A stretch of 64,000 nt of DNA from a virus (lineage: Duplodnaviria > Caudoviricetes), in IMG/VR virus record IMGVR_UViG_3300025389_001063; one strand, given 5' to 3'. The translations under genes and the position numbers were made by a program. The notes below the pieces were generated by a model that was not told the origin of the DNA, did no database searches, and was given only the letters and a program-made list of their open reading frames with translations. Position 1 is the stretch's first letter. Each line of letters starts with the position of its first letter. Below, one piece after another: positions 3,592 to 10,904 of the stretch.

Positions 3592-3888
3592 TTAAGCCAT
3601 AACCGGATCTATGACAGGTGCTAACATATTAGCCGGCACCCGATAATTCCCACGCGACGTATTCACAATCACGTTCTTCTGCATGACCTTCTCTACTGTG
3701 CCAAATAACTTCTGACCAGCACGGTTAGTGAACGATACCTTAGAGCCAGATCGCACCATAGAAGTATTACGCTTAGCCAATTGAGCCCTACGATACTTCA
3801 TAGCATCGATGAGCATATTAAGTTCATCATTAGAAGCTTCGAATTGAATGAAGCTGATAGCAGCATTACGAGCAGCAACAGTAGACAT
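3592..3888 (-). CDS. hypothetical protein with SH3/KOW-like C-terminus
   Basis: GSKVSF...GTVEKVMQKNVIV...YRVPANML; AAGGAG RBS. Confidence 0.6.
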   Translation of the reverse strand: MSTVAARNAAISFIQFEASNDELNMLIDAMKYRRAQLAKRNTSMVRSGSKVSFTNRAGQKLFGTVEKVMQKNVIVNTSRGNYRVPANMLAPVIDPVMA

Positions 3889-3943
3889 ATCCAACTCCTT
3901 AGTTCTCATCCTATACCTTACTATAACACCTTATTCGATAGTG

Positions 3944-4335: not shown

Positions 4336-4806
4336 TTATTCTGACTCCTCTTCTTCCTCTTCCCACATAGCATTATTCTCACTAATAGAAAACTCCATAT
4401 CGATGTCTTCAGGAATATCCTTAGTGCCTTCATAGCAGTCGTCCTCACCATCAGTCCAACGACCACAGAAGTCCATGCCTGGCTCATAGTAGAATGCATC
4501 TACTTCAAAGTCTAACTCTACCAAATGCTCATAGAACGCCAGTGGAGGTGACCAAGCAGTCTCAAATGATAAGTTCAATTGATCAAACCTTATAGCAGCA
4601 GGACTATCGAAACCACGCTCAACATCCCACTTGGTGCCCCAGTTCTCTAGGTTCCAATTATACCAACCTTCACCCTCTAATAGCTCTGGGGGAGTAGGGA
4701 GGAAGGCTTTGAACAAGCCCTCACCATTATAACCAGCCGCCGCCTTCTCTAGCATGGCTCGGTCTTTGTGCTTAAGATAAAGTGTATTTGAACACCAATT
4801 AGGCAT
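4336..4806 (-). CDS. conserved phage protein (MPNWC..., YubB ferredoxin-like/DUF1281 type)
   Basis: MPNWCSN, WNLENWGTKWD, FETAWSPP, YYEPGMDFCG motifs. Confidence 0.7.
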   Translation of the reverse strand: MPNWCSNTLYLKHKDRAMLEKAAAGYNGEGLFKAFLPTPPELLEGEGWYNWNLENWGTKWDVERGFDSPAAIRFDQLNLSFETAWSPPLAFYEHLVELDFEVDAFYYEPGMDFCGRWTDGEDDCYEGTKDIPEDIDMEFSISENNAMWEEEEEESE

Positions 4807-4848: not shown

Positions 4849-5277
4849 TTACGCGGGTATGTCAACCAGCTCCTTATCGCTGTTGCGGCACTCCCACTTG
4901 CCGTTTACATATACATAGGAGTAATCCTGCCCGCGATCATCTGCGAGGAACTCATAGATATCTTTATATTTGTGAGCCTTTGTGCATGTCTCACCACGAT
5001 CGCGTCCATACGCTTTACACCAGTTCTCGGTGCGGGCTTCATATGCGGCACGCTCTGCTTCAGGAACTTCAAACTGGCTAAAGGCATGCTTACGACCAAT
5101 CTTTGGTCCTAGCACAGATAAGTCCCCTAGCTTTATGAGATTAACGATCTTACTAGGAGTATTATAATGGTCCCGCAAGATACGACCATTATGCTCTGGA
5201 TAACCGTCCCAGTGGCAGTAGATGCCCTTAACAAACCCGTTCTCGTCCATAACACCGATTAAGCTGCGAGTGCCCAT
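4849..5277 (-). CDS. conserved phage hypothetical protein
   Basis: MGTRSLIG...IYCHWDGYPEHNG..L..HY family motif; AGGAG RBS. Confidence 0.7.
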   Translation of the reverse strand: MGTRSLIGVMDENGFVKGIYCHWDGYPEHNGRILRDHYNTPSKIVNLIKLGDLSVLGPKIGRKHAFSQFEVPEAERAAYEARTENWCKAYGRDRGETCTKAHKYKDIYEFLADDRGQDYSYVYVNGKWECRNSDKELVDIPA

Positions 5278-6425: not shown

Positions 6426-6501
6426 TGGTGCCCGAAGACGGATTCGAACCGCCGACCTACTGATTACAAATCAGTTGCTCTACCAGCTGAGCTATTCGGG
6501 C
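6426..6501 (-). tRNA. trnT: tRNA-Thr(TGT)
   Basis: cloverleaf GCCCGAA/TTCGGGC, loop TT-TGT-AA, encoded CCA. Confidence 0.95.
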
Positions 6502-6686
6502 GCTTTTATATGCTGCTTCATCTTACGTCGGAACTCTGCTACACTGTGAAGTCTATATACTGCTTCACGAACACTAAGTCCCTCATGGTATGCTGAGTAT
6601 ATATCACCTCCGGTGACCTTGTCAATGGGAAATCCGACTGCTCTCAACTCATTAACAAATTGCTGAAATGCTGTTCCACTAGACAT
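6492..6686 (-). CDS. hypothetical protein
   Basis: GGAGG RBS; 3' end overlaps tRNA-Thr by 10 nt. Confidence 0.5.
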   Translation of the reverse strand: MSSGTAFQQFVNELRAVGFPIDKVTGGDIYSAYHEGLSVREAVYRLHSVAEFRRKMKQHIKAPE

Positions 6687-6741
6687 ATATCCCTCCCTAG
6701 ATGAAGAGTGGGCAGATTAACCGCCCACTATTGTTTATTTA

Positions 6742-6987
6742 TTAAGCGAAGATCTTAGCGCGGCTACCTGTGATATCACGGGCACTCACAGCATACTTCG
6801 CACGTCCCTCTTGAGTCTTCTCACGACGAATCCGTAAACCAACAGCACGTAGATCGCTAATGCGAGCACGGAGGTTGCCAATGCCATATGTAGCACGAGC
6901 TTGAGCCTCTGTCAATGTGCGGCCAGTACCACGAAGATAGTCTTCAAGAAACTCTACCTGAGAAACTGTTAAATGAGTAAATGCCAT
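6742..6987 (-). CDS. winged helix-turn-helix DNA-binding protein
   Basis: LRGTGRTLTEAQARATYGIGNLRARISDLRAVG, a wHTH pattern. Confidence 0.7.
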   Translation of the reverse strand: MAFTHLTVSQVEFLEDYLRGTGRTLTEAQARATYGIGNLRARISDLRAVGLRIRREKTQEGRAKYAVSARDITGSRAKIFA

Positions 6988-7070
6988 ATTGCCTATTCCT
7001 TTGTCAATGCGCTGTCTACAGCGTCTTTATACTATAACAGCGCATATGACAAAGATCAAGCAGTTTGGCT

Positions 7071-7364
7071 CTATTCGCTCTCAGGCTCGAATTCTTCTTC
7101 AGATATAGCATACTCTACCTGCTCGTCTAGCTCAAAGTAATAGCTCTCAAGCTCATCGCAGACACCGTCAATGTCATAACGATGCTCTGTATAATAGTCG
7201 TAGGCGTGAGCCAATTCCTTAGCACGAAGCGACTTAACAATGGTTTGGAGATGCTCTATAACATTCTCAATGTCAGCAGCTATATAACCTAAGTCGTCGC
7301 TGTCGACAATGTTTAAGTCCTGAGCTACGTTGAGATAAAACATGTTAGGTTCAAAGTCGCGCAT
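7071..7364 (-). CDS. acidic hypothetical protein
   Basis: ORF with GAGG RBS and promoter. Confidence 0.6.
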   Translation of the reverse strand: MRDFEPNMFYLNVAQDLNIVDSDDLGYIAADIENVIEHLQTIVKSLRAKELAHAYDYYTEHRYDIDGVCDELESYYFELDEQVEYAISEEEFEPESE

Positions 7365-7415
7365 GATAGCCTCTCTGTGTTGCTATAGCTTACAATAACA
7401 CAAACGACCCAAAAG

Positions 7416-7721
7416 TCAAACTCCCGACCACCTTACACTATTCCAATTGCGAGCAAGTATATTACCGCGGGCGAAGTTCTTAGCAGGTGACGCATAAGAA
7501 GCAGCCTTTAGAATGTCACCCTGCTTGAACTTGCCATCATCCTGCTTGACAATGAACGAGTGAACACTACGGTCTACAATGACCTTGACATACTTACTTC
7601 CATTAGTGAAATCAACCTTGCGTTCAGCTTCTTCTAATGTATACATACCCGTCTTAGCATAATCAGCCCTAATGTGATCAAGGTAATCTAAGAAGTTGAG
7701 TTGAAAGTCCTTGAAGCTCAT
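7416..7721 (-). CDS. conserved phage hypothetical protein
   Basis: GSKYVKV...VHSFIV...GDILKAASY..PAKN.ARGNI family motif. Confidence 0.7.
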   Translation of the reverse strand: MSFKDFQLNFLDYLDHIRADYAKTGMYTLEEAERKVDFTNGSKYVKVIVDRSVHSFIVKQDDGKFKQGDILKAASYASPAKNFARGNILARNWNSVRWSGV

Positions 7722-7722
7722 G

Positions 7723-8052
7723 TTAACCCCTCTTGTCTGTGTTCAATACAGGACGATATTGACGAATTAACTCACGCTCTAATTTATGAGCAGCAACCTT
7801 ACCACGCACTATATACTCTGCTTTTATAACAGCTTCACGGCGATCTGTCAATGACCGAAGAGCGCTATAAAGTGACCAATGTAACCGGGCGGGATCATTC
7901 CTCCGGTACCAATGCTTACTAAGACGCGACCAGAGGCTTTTTGGAACAGTAGATTCAGTTTTCGCCGTGACGCCAACATATAGGTCTCCATCTATCGTTA
8001 TTGAATATACGATATGATTACGGTCCACTCGCTTTTTTCTTACTGCTTTCAT
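7723..8052 (-). CDS. GIY-YIG-like nuclease domain protein
   Basis: IVYSI...LYVGVT...RLSKH...LERELI. Confidence 0.65.
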   Translation of the reverse strand: MKAVRKKRVDRNHIVYSITIDGDLYVGVTAKTESTVPKSLWSRLSKHWYRRNDPARLHWSLYSALRSLTDRREAVIKAEYIVRGKVAAHKLERELIRQYRPVLNTDKRG

Positions 8053-8086
8053 AATAACAATATACACTCAATTCCAAACTAGTCAA

Positions 8087-8285
8087 CCACTAGATATAGT
8101 CACTCAGAACACTAGATATAGTGGACTACATATAGTTACCCACTGACTACATATAGTAGGTTGACACTATATCTATAGACGCTATTATAGAATTATGAAA
8201 GCGAACCAGCAATAGCAGACTCGCTAGGGAGTATACTTCGGGGAACCCTGACCTCAAGGTCGTTTACATAAACAACATATAGTCC
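8087..8285. promoter_or_regulatory. cluster of NrdR-box-like palindromes in a divergent promoter region
   Basis: CCACTAGATATAGTCA 8087, ACACTAGATATAGTGG 8109, GGACTACATATAGTTA 8123, TGACTACATATAGTAG 8144, degenerate ACACTATATCTATAGA 8164, AAACAACATATAGTCC 8270; match to acaCwAtATaTwGtg. Confidence 0.65.
8198..8275 (+). ncRNA. candidate small structured RNA, copy 1
   Basis: directly after TTGACA(8161)/TATTAT promoter; 33-nt core 31/33 identical to copy 2; hairpins. Confidence 0.45.
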
Positions 8286-8343
8286 CTGGTTGACATATAA
8301 AATTGTGACCTTATTATCATACTATAAGCAATAGGAGATCCCA

Positions 8344-8583
8344 ATGCGCAAACTGTCCTACTCAGAAGCCTTTGCTCGTATTGAATCCACATCCTGGACA
8401 GAATTGTATACAATGCTCTATGACTCCCACAAGGACTTCTATGGCTACAAGGGTCGCTATCTATATAACTATACCAAAGAGGAACTCCTCAATTGGTTTT
8501 CGGATCACTTCATGTGGGATAACGACGAACAGTTTTGGCGCAATCAAGTCCCCTTTTACGAATACAACCCGGAGGATATGTGA
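8344..8583 (+). CDS. hypothetical protein
   Basis: AGGAG RBS; promoter TTGACA at 8290. Confidence 0.65.
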   Translation: MRKLSYSEAFARIESTSWTELYTMLYDSHKDFYGYKGRYLYNYTKEELLNWFSDHFMWDNDEQFWRNQVPFYEYNPEDM

Positions 8584-8584
8584 T

Positions 8585-8806
8585 ATGCACTATGCTCAAT
8601 TCTATAATCAAACAGCCAAAGGTCTCCTCGAAGCTTGTGGTGATCGCGCTGTTATTATACTAGATGGTAGAGAATCACAGTGGAAGCAGGAACATACCGC
8701 AAGGCAGGAATGTGCCAAAAGAGGTTATGTGGCTTTTAGACTTTATAAAGGTGAGTCATTTACTCGTTCATGGCCAATCTCTCAAATCACAGTTTTGCCA
8801 GGTTGA
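8585..8806 (+). CDS. hypothetical protein
   Basis: GGAGG RBS before MHYAQFY (C-terminal part of track ORF 8372-8806). Confidence 0.6.
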   Translation: MHYAQFYNQTAKGLLEACGDRAVIILDGRESQWKQEHTARQECAKRGYVAFRLYKGESFTRSWPISQITVLPG

Positions 8807-8838
8807 CGCACCCGCTAGTGATGTTAATATAACAATAT

Positions 8839-8917
8839 AAAGCGCACACCCAATAGGGATCGCGTGATGGGTTCAAGTTCCGCCGAACTCTGACCTCCAG
8901 GTCGTTTACATAAACAA
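8839..8917 (+). ncRNA. candidate small structured RNA, copy 2
   Basis: after TTGACG(8803)/TAATAT promoter; no downstream ORF on +; same architecture as copy 1. Confidence 0.5.
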
Positions 8918-8983
8918 AATCGCGACCTAGAAGATCACCCCAGGCGAATGTATACTATACCAATTCACTATAGTATACATTAA

Positions 8984-9415
8984 CTACTTCTTCTGCTGTT
9001 TACATACTTCACCAGTGTTTACAGACTGAGTGCATACGTTTACATTAACTGTGGTGGGCGCTGCTACCGGAACCGGAACAGGGACTTTTTTGTATACAAC
9101 ACGACGCTTGACGACTACGCGATCTCTTACTATAATGCGATCTCTGTATACAACAGCAGGTGGCTGCTGAACTATTACAGCAGGCGGAGTCTCTATTACA
9201 ACAGGTGGCTGAGGAACTACTACTCGTCTCCTCACTATTACTTGCTGTGGATATAAGGTTTCCATAGAATCCACATATGGATTATATCCCGGTGGCGGTA
9301 ATGCTGTTTGTGGCGCAGCATATGGATATCCCGGTCCCGCTCCGGGATAATATTGGGCGTGAGCACTTCCCGCTATTAGTACACTAGATATAGTGGCAAT
9401 CACAATACGTTTCAT
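8984..9415 (-). CDS. secreted Pro/Val-rich protein (Rhizobiales-type)
   Basis: signal peptide MKRIVIATISSVLIAGSAHA; PPVV repeats; C-terminal Cys pair. Confidence 0.7.
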   Translation of the reverse strand: MKRIVIATISSVLIAGSAHAQYYPGAGPGYPYAAPQTALPPPGYNPYVDSMETLYPQQVIVRRRVVVPQPPVVIETPPAVIVQQPPAVVYRDRIIVRDRVVVKRRVVYKKVPVPVPVAAPTTVNVNVCTQSVNTGEVCKQQKK

Positions 9416-9526
9416 GCTTTAGACTCCCTATAATAAGACTATACGACGATATATAGTACCTGTCAACCATGGTCTTGGCGTGTTTTGAATGCTAGATATA
9501 GTAGATCTATACACTAGATATAGTGG
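9381..9526. promoter_or_regulatory. second cluster of NrdR-box-like palindromes
   Basis: ACACTAGATATAGTGG 9381 and 9511, ATGCTAGATATAGTAG 9489, degenerate CGACGATATATAGTAC 9444 inside the promoter with TTGACA at 9461-9466 (-). Confidence 0.65.
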
Positions 9527-9712
9527 TTGACCGTGGTGACGACAGGCTTAGTTCAAATGGTATCTTTCCGATTTTGTCCAAGTTCTTCCTATTCACCACT
9601 ATATCGACAATCTATCTCTATAGTAGTTCGCCTGTCTAATCGCCGCGTTCAAGCCAGCGACTACTGTGGATCTCGTGTGCTTATAGCAGCGCCCACAGCT
9701 TTCCTAAGATGC

Positions 9713-9966
9713 ACAGCGGGGCCACTATGCATTAGGATCTCTATCGTCGTTTGCATGTATATCCAAAGGCGGCACAGCGGGGCCAGTAGTATTCCATTTA
9801 GTTCCTGCTAGTACCACCAATGGGATTGTTCTTTTTATAAAGTAAGTACCAGTTGTTACAGCGGGGCCTTTAAATACAGCATATGTTTTAACGGGACCTC
9901 TACTACGTTTACGATTAGCCTTTTTAAAGAAGTCTTTAAGATCGTTCATTATGTTACAGCGGGGCC
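9713..9966. repeat. four dispersed copies of the 11-mer ACAGCGGGGCC
   Basis: exact copies at 9713, 9774, 9858 and 9956. Confidence 0.9.
9725..9949 (-). CDS. possible hypothetical protein
   Basis: ORF only; contains the GPAV-coding repeats. Confidence 0.3.
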   Translation of the reverse strand: MNDLKDFFKKANRKRSRGPVKTYAVFKGPAVTTGTYFIKRTIPLVVLAGTKWNTTGPAVPPLDIHANDDRDPNA

Positions 9967-10140
9967 TGTATGTAGAGTATCAGTATATGTATTTGTGCCT
10001 TCTATACGATCTAGTAGTGTCTGTTCTAGTTGTTCAACTTCTGCTTCTAGTGCTCTAGTTTCCCTATAAAGTTCTACTAGTCTGTCTTTCTTTGGTACTA
10101 GTATAAGATTGTATAGTGCTATTTCTTCTATGCTCATCAT
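9949..10140 (-). CDS. hypothetical protein
   Basis: coupled ORF in leftward array. Confidence 0.5.
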   Translation of the reverse strand: MMSIEEIALYNLILVPKKDRLVELYRETRALEAEVEQLEQTLLDRIEGTNTYTDTLHTGPAVT

Positions 10141-10358
10141 TGTGGATTTACTCTTTTCTTTAGTATAGCAAGTGTTCTATGATAGCGTTCGTTTAGTATG
10201 TTAAGACTATCAATAAGTTCGCTATATTCATTACTCAATCTATAGCGTTCTTTACTGTTTAGTATGTTAAGTCTATCTATAATATTACTACGTTCATCTA
10301 GTGTATTATTTGAAGTTATTTCTAGTTGTTCTATAGTCATTGTTATTAGATCTTCCAT
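10137..10358 (-). CDS. hypothetical coiled-coil protein
   Basis: ORF in array. Confidence 0.5.
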   Translation of the reverse strand: MEDLITMTIEQLEITSNNTLDERSNIIDRLNILNSKERYRLSNEYSELIDSLNILNERYHRTLAILKKRVNPQ

Positions 10359-10438
10359 TTGGGTCCCCTATAATGATGTTAGCAATAGTAGTAATAAAGG
10401 CCAGTATGACCAGCATCAGCATCAATGATTTAGACTGT

Positions 10439-10663
10439 TCAGTCATCACCAAATTCTACTATTTTATCTATGTGCATTATTTCATTTAGATCTTTTTCTA
10501 AGTTTTTTGAGTATCCTACTATATTTTGTATATCCATATGTTCGTAAGTAAGTAGTTCTTCTTCTAAGTGATTAATATAAGCAAGAGCATCTAGACTAAG
10601 TTCAGTATTTTGATTTTTCAGTTGATTTTTTAATTCTGTAATTTGCATCATATTTGTTCTCAT
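10439..10663 (-). CDS. hypothetical protein, paralog of 10602-10904
   Basis: LKNQLKNQNTELSLDALAYINHLEE vs LKQLLKNHNSQMSLAALDYIQRLED. Confidence 0.55.
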   Translation of the reverse strand: MRTNMMQITELKNQLKNQNTELSLDALAYINHLEEELLTYEHMDIQNIVGYSKNLEKDLNEIMHIDKIVEFGDD

Positions 10664-10904
10664 TCACCAAGTCTTTTACACGTTGTATAACGTATGGTTG
10701 CTGTATAGGAGTCAATTTCACTACATCTTGTGCTATTTTAAGTTGTTCTTTAAGTGTGTTAATTTCGTTATTAATAGCATTTAGATCAATGTTATGTTCG
10801 TATACAGTAACTCTATCTTCTAGACGCTGTATATAGTCAAGAGCAGCAAGGCTCATCTGGGAATTGTGATTTTTGAGTAGTTGTTTCAGTTTCTTCGTGT
10901 TCAT
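10602..10904 (-). CDS. hypothetical protein, paralog of 10439-10663
   Basis: GGAGG RBS; shared motif as above. Confidence 0.6.
   Translation of the reverse strand: MNTKKLKQLLKNHNSQMSLAALDYIQRLEDRVTVYEHNIDLNAINNEINTLKEQLKIAQDVVKLTPIQQPYVIQRVKDLVNENKYDANYRIKKSTEKSKY

Follow-up and report, generated by a model that had tools for sequence, protein, structure and literature searches.

Does a jumbo phage place the operators of a bacterial nucleotide sensor on its own early promoters? This question is raised by 16-bp boxes resembling the operator of NrdR in a 64,000-nt stretch of virus DNA (IMG/VR record IMGVR_UViG_3300025389_001063), which we call the window. NrdR, a zinc-ribbon/ATP-cone repressor, needs both dATP and either ATP or ADP in order to bind DNA. 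We found ten such boxes in two clusters, at 8087-8285 and 9381-9526, 1.3 kb apart. The boxes are real and non-random, agree with the definition of the NrdR box and stand at fixed positions beside -35 hexamers in either orientation; elsewhere, pairs of their core are NrdR-like. Host NrdR, or an NrdR-type protein, may bind them in a non-canonical mode and gate four promoters by the dATP/ATP state, a reading to which we give a little less than an even chance.

Sequence and placement of the boxes

The window is part of a 351,300-bp metagenomic contig (ENA ERZ27272004 k141_182421) of an uncultured, T4-like freshwater jumbo phage. Its first 20 kb form an early-type region of small genes, mainly on the minus strand, and the phage ribonucleotide reductase (RNR) genes nrdA (with an ATP-cone) and nrdB lie at 60772-63999. 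The original prediction reported six 16-mers at 8087-8285. All six are present, as are the four exact cores, and the array is real; the reported field omitted the second cluster of the same feature. ACTASATATAGT is exact at 8089, 8111, 8125 and 8146, with a one-mismatch copy at 8272 and an inverted TAGATATAGT at 8166-8175. Matches to the pattern in cluster 2 start at 9383, 9491 and 9513, with a degenerate copy at 9446. Allowing one mismatch, ACTA[G/C]ATATAGT has eight matches in the window against 1.19 expected, a count reached in none of 100 shuffles, and all matches are confined to 1,436 bp. Three sites (8109, 9381 and 9511) share the identical 16-mer ACACTAGATATAGTGG; identity ends exactly at the 16-bp borders, and the flanks differ.

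To score the window, we derived a symmetric weight matrix from 16 NrdR boxes that had been studied experimentally (Listeria, two Streptococcus species and E. coli; supplement of PMC12051234). ACACTAGATATAGTGG reached 19.0 bits, above 15 of the 16 training boxes (range 10.2-20.6), and its three copies are the top three matches in the window. The remaining boxes scored 14.0, 11.0 (twice) and 7.7-8.7 bits. An NrdR box is a 16-bp partial palindrome with highly conserved C4, A6, A8, T9, T11 and G13, in which positions 7 and 10 are experimentally free (bioRxiv 10.64898/2026.05.11.724285). Nine of the ten phage boxes carry all six conserved positions and the tenth carries five; departures from the textbook consensus fall at positions 7 and 10. 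Of the 12 positions of the phage core, one departs from E. coli nrdHIEF box 2, and the stretch over which the three perfect copies agree, 16 bp, has precisely the length of an NrdR box. The predicted resemblance was thus borne out, and by sequence definition the ten sites are putative NrdR-type operator boxes. It was also correct that the phage nrdA has no such box upstream (best matrix score 3.0 bits in 60100-60800). The boxes are listed below without strand, with their placement relative to the promoters PL1, PR1, PR2 and PL2.

8087-8102, box 1, CCACTAGATATAGTCA: 11.0 bits, 6/6 conserved positions; directly abuts the PL1 -35 (8086-8081)
8109-8124, box 2, ACACTAGATATAGTGG: 19.0 bits, among the window's top three, 6/6; 22 bp from box 1
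8123-8138, box 3, GGACTACATATAGTTA: 8.1 bits, 6/6; 14 bp from box 2, with which it overlaps by 2 bp (doublet)
8144-8159, box 4, TGACTACATATAGTAG: 8.7 bits, 6/6; ends 1 nt before the PR1 -35, centre at about -44
8164-8179, box 5, ACACTATATCTATAGA, inverted: 7.9 bits, 5/6, G13 missing; overlaps the PR1 -35 and spacer; 41 bp from box 3
8270-8285, box 6, AAACAACATATAGTCC: 11.0 bits, 6/6; ends 4 nt before the PR2 -35
9381-9396, box 7, ACACTAGATATAGTGG: 19.0 bits; in the first codons of gene 8984-9415 (minus strand), downstream of PL2
9444-9459, box 8, CGACGATATATAGTAC: 7.7 bits, 6/6; fills the PL2 spacer between -35 and -10
9489-9504, box 9, ATGCTAGATATAGTAG: 14.0 bits, 6/6; 22 bp from box 10
9511-9526, box 10, ACACTAGATATAGTGG: 19.0 bits; directly abuts TTGACC at 9527

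The AT-rich stretch adjoining cluster 2 contains two isolated additional matrix matches, at 10516-10531 (14.4 bits) and 10718-10733 (13.7 bits), offset by 202 bp; they are within the range of the shuffles and may be due to chance.

A promoter scan placed four strong sigma70-type promoters at the box clusters:

8059-8086, minus strand, PL1: TTGACT-16-TATATT, scan score 10/12; upstream of gene 7723-8052
8161-8188, plus strand, PR1: TTGACA-16-TATTAT, 11/12; short unit
8290-8317, plus strand, PR2: TTGACA-16-TATTAT, 11/12; upstream of the 79-aa open reading frame (ORF) 8344-8583
9438-9466, minus strand, PL2: TTGACA-17-TATAGT, 11/12; upstream of the 143-aa gene 8984-9415

As originally proposed, the boxes adjoin promoters: they end 1-4 nt from the -35 hexamers at 8086, 8161 and 8290, and abut TTGACC at 9527, a -35-like hexamer without a good -10 that is absent from the promoter scan list. 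Boxes abut or overlap these four early promoters, and about 20 other early promoters of the window carry none. The junction box-GG-TTGAC occurs both at PL1 and at 9527, with box orientation relative to transcription opposite at the two. Because this junction keeps the box in either orientation, its sequence suggests a symmetric reader (a dimer) at a fixed position near -44.

The ATG at 8052, which opens gene 7723-8052, lies only 6 nt past the PL1 -10, so the PL1 mRNA may be leaderless. A perfect 11-nt inverted repeat (8045-8055 / 8192-8202) is also present, and both divergent transcripts, from PL1 and PR1, start with ATTATGAAAGC; the PR1 unit opens with a truncated copy (MKANQQ stop, 8196-8216).

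Spacing of the core in the window, in other phages and in bacteria

NrdR binds two boxes as a tetramer and does not bind a single box (PMC12051234; bioRxiv 10.64898/2026.05.11.724285). It binds well when the linker measures 14-17 bp, which puts three turns between the centres, or 24-27 bp, which puts four; other linkers within the tested 12-27 bp gave binding weaker by about 100-fold, at most 300-fold, and no repression in vivo (PMC12051234). From one box start to the next, the window has steps of 22, 14, 21 and 20 bp within cluster 1; in cluster 2 they measure 63, 45 and 22 bp. Two or three helical turns had been taken as the NrdR norm in the original prediction; the canonical values are three or four, and the 20-22 and 14 bp of the array fall outside them. 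The published linker series spans 12-27 bp, and linkers of 4-6 bp are outside its range (PMC12051234). We infer that NrdR would bind the two-turn and abutting boxes of the array in a non-canonical geometry.

In IMG/VR we looked for pairs of exact 12-mer copies separated by 2-42 bp. This search yielded 50 distinct pairs with unrelated linker sequences, of which 19 were 31-32 bp apart, 33 were 28-34 bp apart and four were 41-43 bp apart; minor classes stood at 14-15, 20-21, 28 and 38 bp. A control with the reversed, non-complemented pattern gave 5 contigs against 50 and lacked the 31-32 bp peak. Among matrix matches of at least 12 bits in the IMG/VR loci, adjacent distances had two peaks, one of 34 cases at 31-33 bp and one of 11 cases at 15 bp. 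Across 401 alphaproteobacterial genomes, this box type formed nine pairs at 31-32 bp and two at 42 bp, and no others. Furthermore, the OprB porin of the phage has one weak (30%) match, too weak to name the host, in an alphaproteobacterial metagenome-assembled genome (MAG) that encodes NrdR; at the RNR loci of alphaproteobacterial genomes related to this MAG, matrix matches are 31-33 bp apart. Because its pairs peak at an NrdR-type spacing in phages and bacteria alike, the 12-mer core is, as judged from these distances, probably a bona fide NrdR-type box, and other phages mostly retain NrdR spacing. The array in the window appears to belong to a phage-only minority of arrangements.

An instructive counterpart is locus L053 (G015:C1:59127-65532) in G015, a 67-kb fragment of a distant T4-like relative that carries homologues of window genes 3592-3909, 4336-4806 and 4849-5277. 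Four G015 sites carry boxes spaced by 31-32 bp, and at one of these a third box abuts; all four fall within the final 8 kb of the record, where its early region is. At two of the L053 sites the boxes end 10-11 nt upstream of an early-promoter GTTGAC -35, with a ribosome-binding site and then a start codon after it. L053 thus has the same architecture as the window, but with canonical spacing and with the boxes displaced outward by one helical turn (box centre at about -54.5 versus -44). The pairs in L053/G015, L056, L014 and L031 share with the window the 12-mer core and a non-coding location, and those in L053 and L056 also lie directly upstream of a -35; they keep the 31-32 bp spacing, whereas the window array does not.

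The paired boxes in other phages do not accompany RNR genes. ORFs adjoining the IMG/VR pairs included no RNR and encoded instead terminases, glycosyltransferases, an integrase and small unknown proteins. Among 25 records with paired boxes, canonical and near-canonical, a class I/II RNR was present in three, NrdD in none and NrdR in none, and four of the five complete genomes had no RNR at all. Records with non-canonical arrays encoded no ATP-cone protein. Pairs at 31-32 bp were seen in L012, L014, L019, L021, L024, L027, L031, L033/L036, L041, L043, L045, L056, L057 and others, and such NrdR-type pairs are common in phage contigs without an RNR or NrdR gene. TTGAC was not significantly enriched next to the IMG/VR box clusters (7 of 53 clusters). 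The motif GGTGACGACAGG, which follows boxes in the window, L017, L027 and L007, was considered as a second shared motif and set aside, its count being near chance.

At L029:700-925, L012:2700-2880, L045:10970-11130 and L021:5080-5210, NrdR-type pairs have clusters of perfect DnaA boxes (TTATCCACA) no more than about 130 bp away. In L031 and L033/L036 the pair stands beside iteron-like direct repeats, and the L033/L036 pair is in a terminal repeat. In E. coli, the nrdAB promoter is wired with DnaA plus NrdR. Pairs beside DnaA boxes or iterons may mark origin-like regions, or promoters wired like that of E. coli nrdAB.

Other arrangements recur as well. Abutting doublets 15 bp apart occur in unrelated contigs (L003:308-334, L006:3098-3154, L008:4235-4261, L034:12848-12920 and L046:1488-1576); those of L003, L006 and L008 are in a 5' untranslated region (5'UTR), downstream of a TTGACA-17-TATAAT promoter, and L006 has four boxes with a 15-bp period. 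A four-box array at L018:876-976, with distances of 35, 16 and 34 bp, ends 17 nt before a gene start in a complete jumbo phage genome (IMGVR_UViG_3300037247_001786, 461 kb, terminal repeats) without an ATP-cone protein.

Candidate readers and rival explanations

Host NrdR would be the likeliest binder of the ten predicted operator boxes at PL1, PR1, PR2 and PL2. When dATP is plentiful the promoters would be damped, and when DNA precursors run short they would be released; a subset of early genes would thereby be tied to the nucleotide state of the infected cell. Three elements of this scheme are what we infer: NrdR as the binder, its use of two-turn (20-22 bp) and abutting (14 bp) boxes, and repression upon binding. 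NrdA is the only ATP-cone protein in the window, and all-against-all blastp and tblastn revealed no regulator shared between the window and the box-bearing loci. The proteins common to both are three early families shared with L053, one of which (the 4336-4806 family) is also shared with L029. Because box-bearing records lack NrdR and share no binder, the pattern favours a host factor as the probable reader of the box family as a whole. NrdR proteins of E. coli and S. coelicolor bind boxes of other species in vitro (bioRxiv 10.64898/2026.05.11.724285), so the box type should be portable, and the host-NrdR reading is directly testable. We also compared MotA boxes, T4 late promoters, phage RNA-polymerase promoters and the sites of LexA, Fur, CRP, NtcA and PhoB; none fits the sequence or the arrangement.

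The genes around the array, and their relatives, bear on both its reader and its age. Two of them are needed here:

7723-8052, minus strand: first gene of the leftward operon, encoding a small GIY-YIG-like protein (weak Pfam match); kept in relatives without boxes
6742-6987, minus strand: winged-helix protein (wHTH; HTH_39) of the same leftward operon, candidate alternative binder; absent from relatives

IMG/VR contains 301 relatives of the AAA ATPase at 815-1879. The GIY-YIG-like gene is kept as the first gene before this ATPase in 68 of 80 related loci, and it is preceded there by a terminator and an ordinary early promoter without boxes. Most genes at 5.4-10 kb, the wHTH included, have no homologue in relatives. 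The array would thus be a recent, lineage-specific acquisition, judging from these comparisons. At the DNA level, megablast and blastn against cultured phages found no relatives of 6500-10500, 7000-10000 or 8085-8182, and the protein of 8984-9415 has no relatives in IMG/VR. Exact copies of the region occur in four metagenome records, all 100% identical, with no microdiversity around 8984-9415. Three lake metagenomes of the Joint Genome Institute (JGI) contain identical copies, and the phage is present in the bog-lake samples JGI 3300003798, 3300004806 and 3300025417.

The 7723-8052 family comprises proteins of about 105-150 aa with GIY-YIG-like motifs visible in the alignment and 39 invariant columns. 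Its member in the window has no PHROG annotation and no PDB sequence match, and a role as a T4 EndoII-like nuclease of host DNA, controlled by dNTPs (deoxynucleoside triphosphates), was considered and dropped as unsupported.

Several observations weigh against host NrdR as the reader. The linkers between neighbours in the tight arrays are 6, -2, 5, 4 and 6 bp; no box pair in the window is 30-33 bp apart, and the sole 41-bp pair (8123/8164), the one that fits the canonical arrangement, is weak and includes the box lacking G13. Pairs 14-30 bp apart accounted for none of the 11 found in the 401 alphaproteobacterial genomes. The strong boxes lie upstream of the -35, and core promoter elements are overlapped only by the two weakest boxes (8164-8179 and 9444-9459), a placement unlike typical NrdR repression sites. 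Seven of the eight strong boxes point the same way and have S at position 7 together with A at position 10; such uniformity would result from local duplication or, equally, from a directional reader. The array is not conserved in related phages, a point the original prediction had wished to see checked: the 80 related loci (883 kb) contain no box cluster and no match of at least 17 bits, and two complete relatives (about 360 kb) have neither box clusters nor NrdR. Finally, NrdR in the host is presumed. The search for a phage-borne binder covered the 64-kb window, and the other roughly 287 kb of the genome lie outside it; some aquatic podoviruses encode proteins annotated as NrdR, and a phage-encoded reader elsewhere in the genome is possible.

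These observations leave room for another dimeric, sequence-specific protein, whether the phage wHTH, the product of a gene outside the window or a different host factor, and we regard this alternative as possible though clearly short of probable. Each palindrome would be bound and neighbours two turns apart would cooperate in the manner of lambda, forming a local switch for the divergent promoters. Cooperating dimers suit the 20-22 bp spacings and the 14-bp doublet better than the NrdR tetramer does, and would also accommodate the uniform orientation with its conserved asymmetric centre. Recurrent non-NrdR-like spacings in phage contigs (the 11 cases of 15-bp doublets, and the 20-21 and 28 bp classes) and the tandem 5'UTR boxes of L003, L006 and L008 point the same way, and the wHTH and most genes at 5.4-10 kb, like the array, have no homologue in relatives. 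The wHTH, named in the original prediction as an alternative binder, is indeed as lineage-specific as the array, but it does not accompany the boxes in other phages: HTH_39 is absent from seven complete box-bearing phage genomes, and no regulator is common to the window and the other box-bearing contigs. A different dimer would also have to account for boxes that match the NrdR box in every sequence feature, with a conserved unit of exactly 16 bp, and for the 31-32 bp NrdR spacing of the same core in most other phages.

Three further explanations appear less probable. The original prediction had offered a decoy as one of two options, and this proved the weaker: multiplying phage genomes would titrate host NrdR and derepress host RNR, and the phage nrdAB would escape control. 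Ten boxes per genome with none at the phage nrdA are compatible with this, as is the raised NrdR regulon in phage-infected S. pneumoniae (PMC6755750), although dNTP depletion can explain that rise. However, a sponge needs high-affinity sites, the spacing of the array lies outside the NrdR rule and is of the poorly binding kind, precise placement relative to -35 hexamers would be unneeded, and relatives of the same lifestyle lack the array. We consider titration improbable. The accompanying notion of early-entering DNA has no support in a T4-like genome.

We judge it just as improbable that an initiator reads the boxes as iterons of an origin of replication, or as some other DNA-level site (partition, packaging). 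The direct repeats, in a common orientation, about two turns from one another and grouped in two clusters separated by 1.3 kb, resemble iterons; four ACAGCGGGGCC repeats are reported at 9713-9966, a compositional step and a local minimum of cumulative GC skew lie at about 9.5-10 kb, and elsewhere NrdR-like pairs adjoin DnaA-box clusters (L012, L021, L029, L045) or iteron arrays (L031, L033/L036). Yet the array has no DnaA boxes nearby and no adjoining initiator-like gene, and every box, itself a palindrome, keeps a fixed distance from a -35 hexamer. Iteron origins are not known from T4-like phages, which also counts against this explanation. Least probable of all, and in our view very unlikely, is that duplicated promoter cassettes spread the boxes as remnants without function, whose likeness to NrdR sites is a coincidence. 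The early region is built of duplicated promoter cassettes, and PR1/PR2 as well as the PL1/PR1 transcript starts are partial duplicates; but the identity is limited to the 16-bp box while the flanks differ, one copy is retained inside a coding sequence, about 20 other early promoters carry no box, and the match to an independently derived matrix is extreme.

GC content drops from 0.44 to 0.33 at about 9.5-10 kb of the window; across 9500-10500 it is about 0.44 on the left and 0.32-0.38 on the right, and AT skew shifts from 0 to -0.2. Box cluster 2 is located at this boundary, where cumulative GC skew has a local minimum (about 9.5-10 kb).

Known operator systems and implications

NrdR operators consist of 16-bp partial palindromes with six conserved positions and an AT-rich centre, present in multiples by sigma70 promoters (PMC9110341, PMC12051234), and the phage boxes resemble them in all these respects. 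The differences concern location and number. NrdR operators stand at RNR genes, whereas the phage boxes are elsewhere, in a phage without an NrdR gene in the 64 kb examined; the neighbours of the array are small early ORFs, not an RNR operon. Canonical NrdR sites are one pair with a linker of 15-16 (or 24-27) bp, whereas the phage groups four to five boxes per array, their linkers measuring -2 to 6 bp. Canonical boxes lie over the core promoter or transcription start, and the strong phage boxes lie upstream of the -35.

NrdR-like boxes at Shewanella dnaA and Pseudomonas topA (bioRxiv 10.1101/2025.03.28.645925) are likewise outside RNR operons and non-canonical in arrangement. They are isolated, whereas the phage has ten clustered boxes, three of them perfect, at promoters. 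The single boxes at dnaA and topA are now doubted as functional, topA being unchanged in an nrdR mutant (bioRxiv 10.1101/2025.03.28.645925). The array also recalls OR/OL of lambda, with palindromic sites about two turns apart between back-to-back promoters, some over the -35 or spacer. Unlike the lambda operators, it has no flanking CI/Cro-like gene: it is flanked by the GIY-YIG-like protein and small unknown ORFs, and the nearest helix-turn-helix (HTH) gene (6742-6987) is four genes away. Moreover, the phage looks lytic and T4-like, and the site is of a host-repressor type.

Full-text literature searches found no paper describing NrdR boxes in phages, in line with the original prediction, nor any account of phages with paired NrdR boxes away from nrd genes. 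A 2025 regulon study concluded that the regulon of NrdR is confined to RNR operons, reported paired NrdR boxes at these only and does not mention phages (bioRxiv 10.1101/2025.03.28.645925). A broader proposal is that phages widely co-opt host NrdR for non-RNR genes, at early promoters and at DnaA-box origin-like regions, and that this jumbo phage's dense array is read in an undescribed two-turn and abutting mode, which would make a block of its early promoters a read-out of dATP/ATP. We put this forward tentatively, as a possibility that is more doubtful than the binding of host NrdR to the array in the window.

The array bears on whether NrdR can use two-turn or abutting boxes, spacings outside the published series of 12-27 bp linkers. 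Should phages equip promoters of their own with NrdR operators, this universal nucleotide sensor of bacteria would serve them as a timing or decision device, and infection programmes could be interpreted as reactions to the supply of dNTPs.

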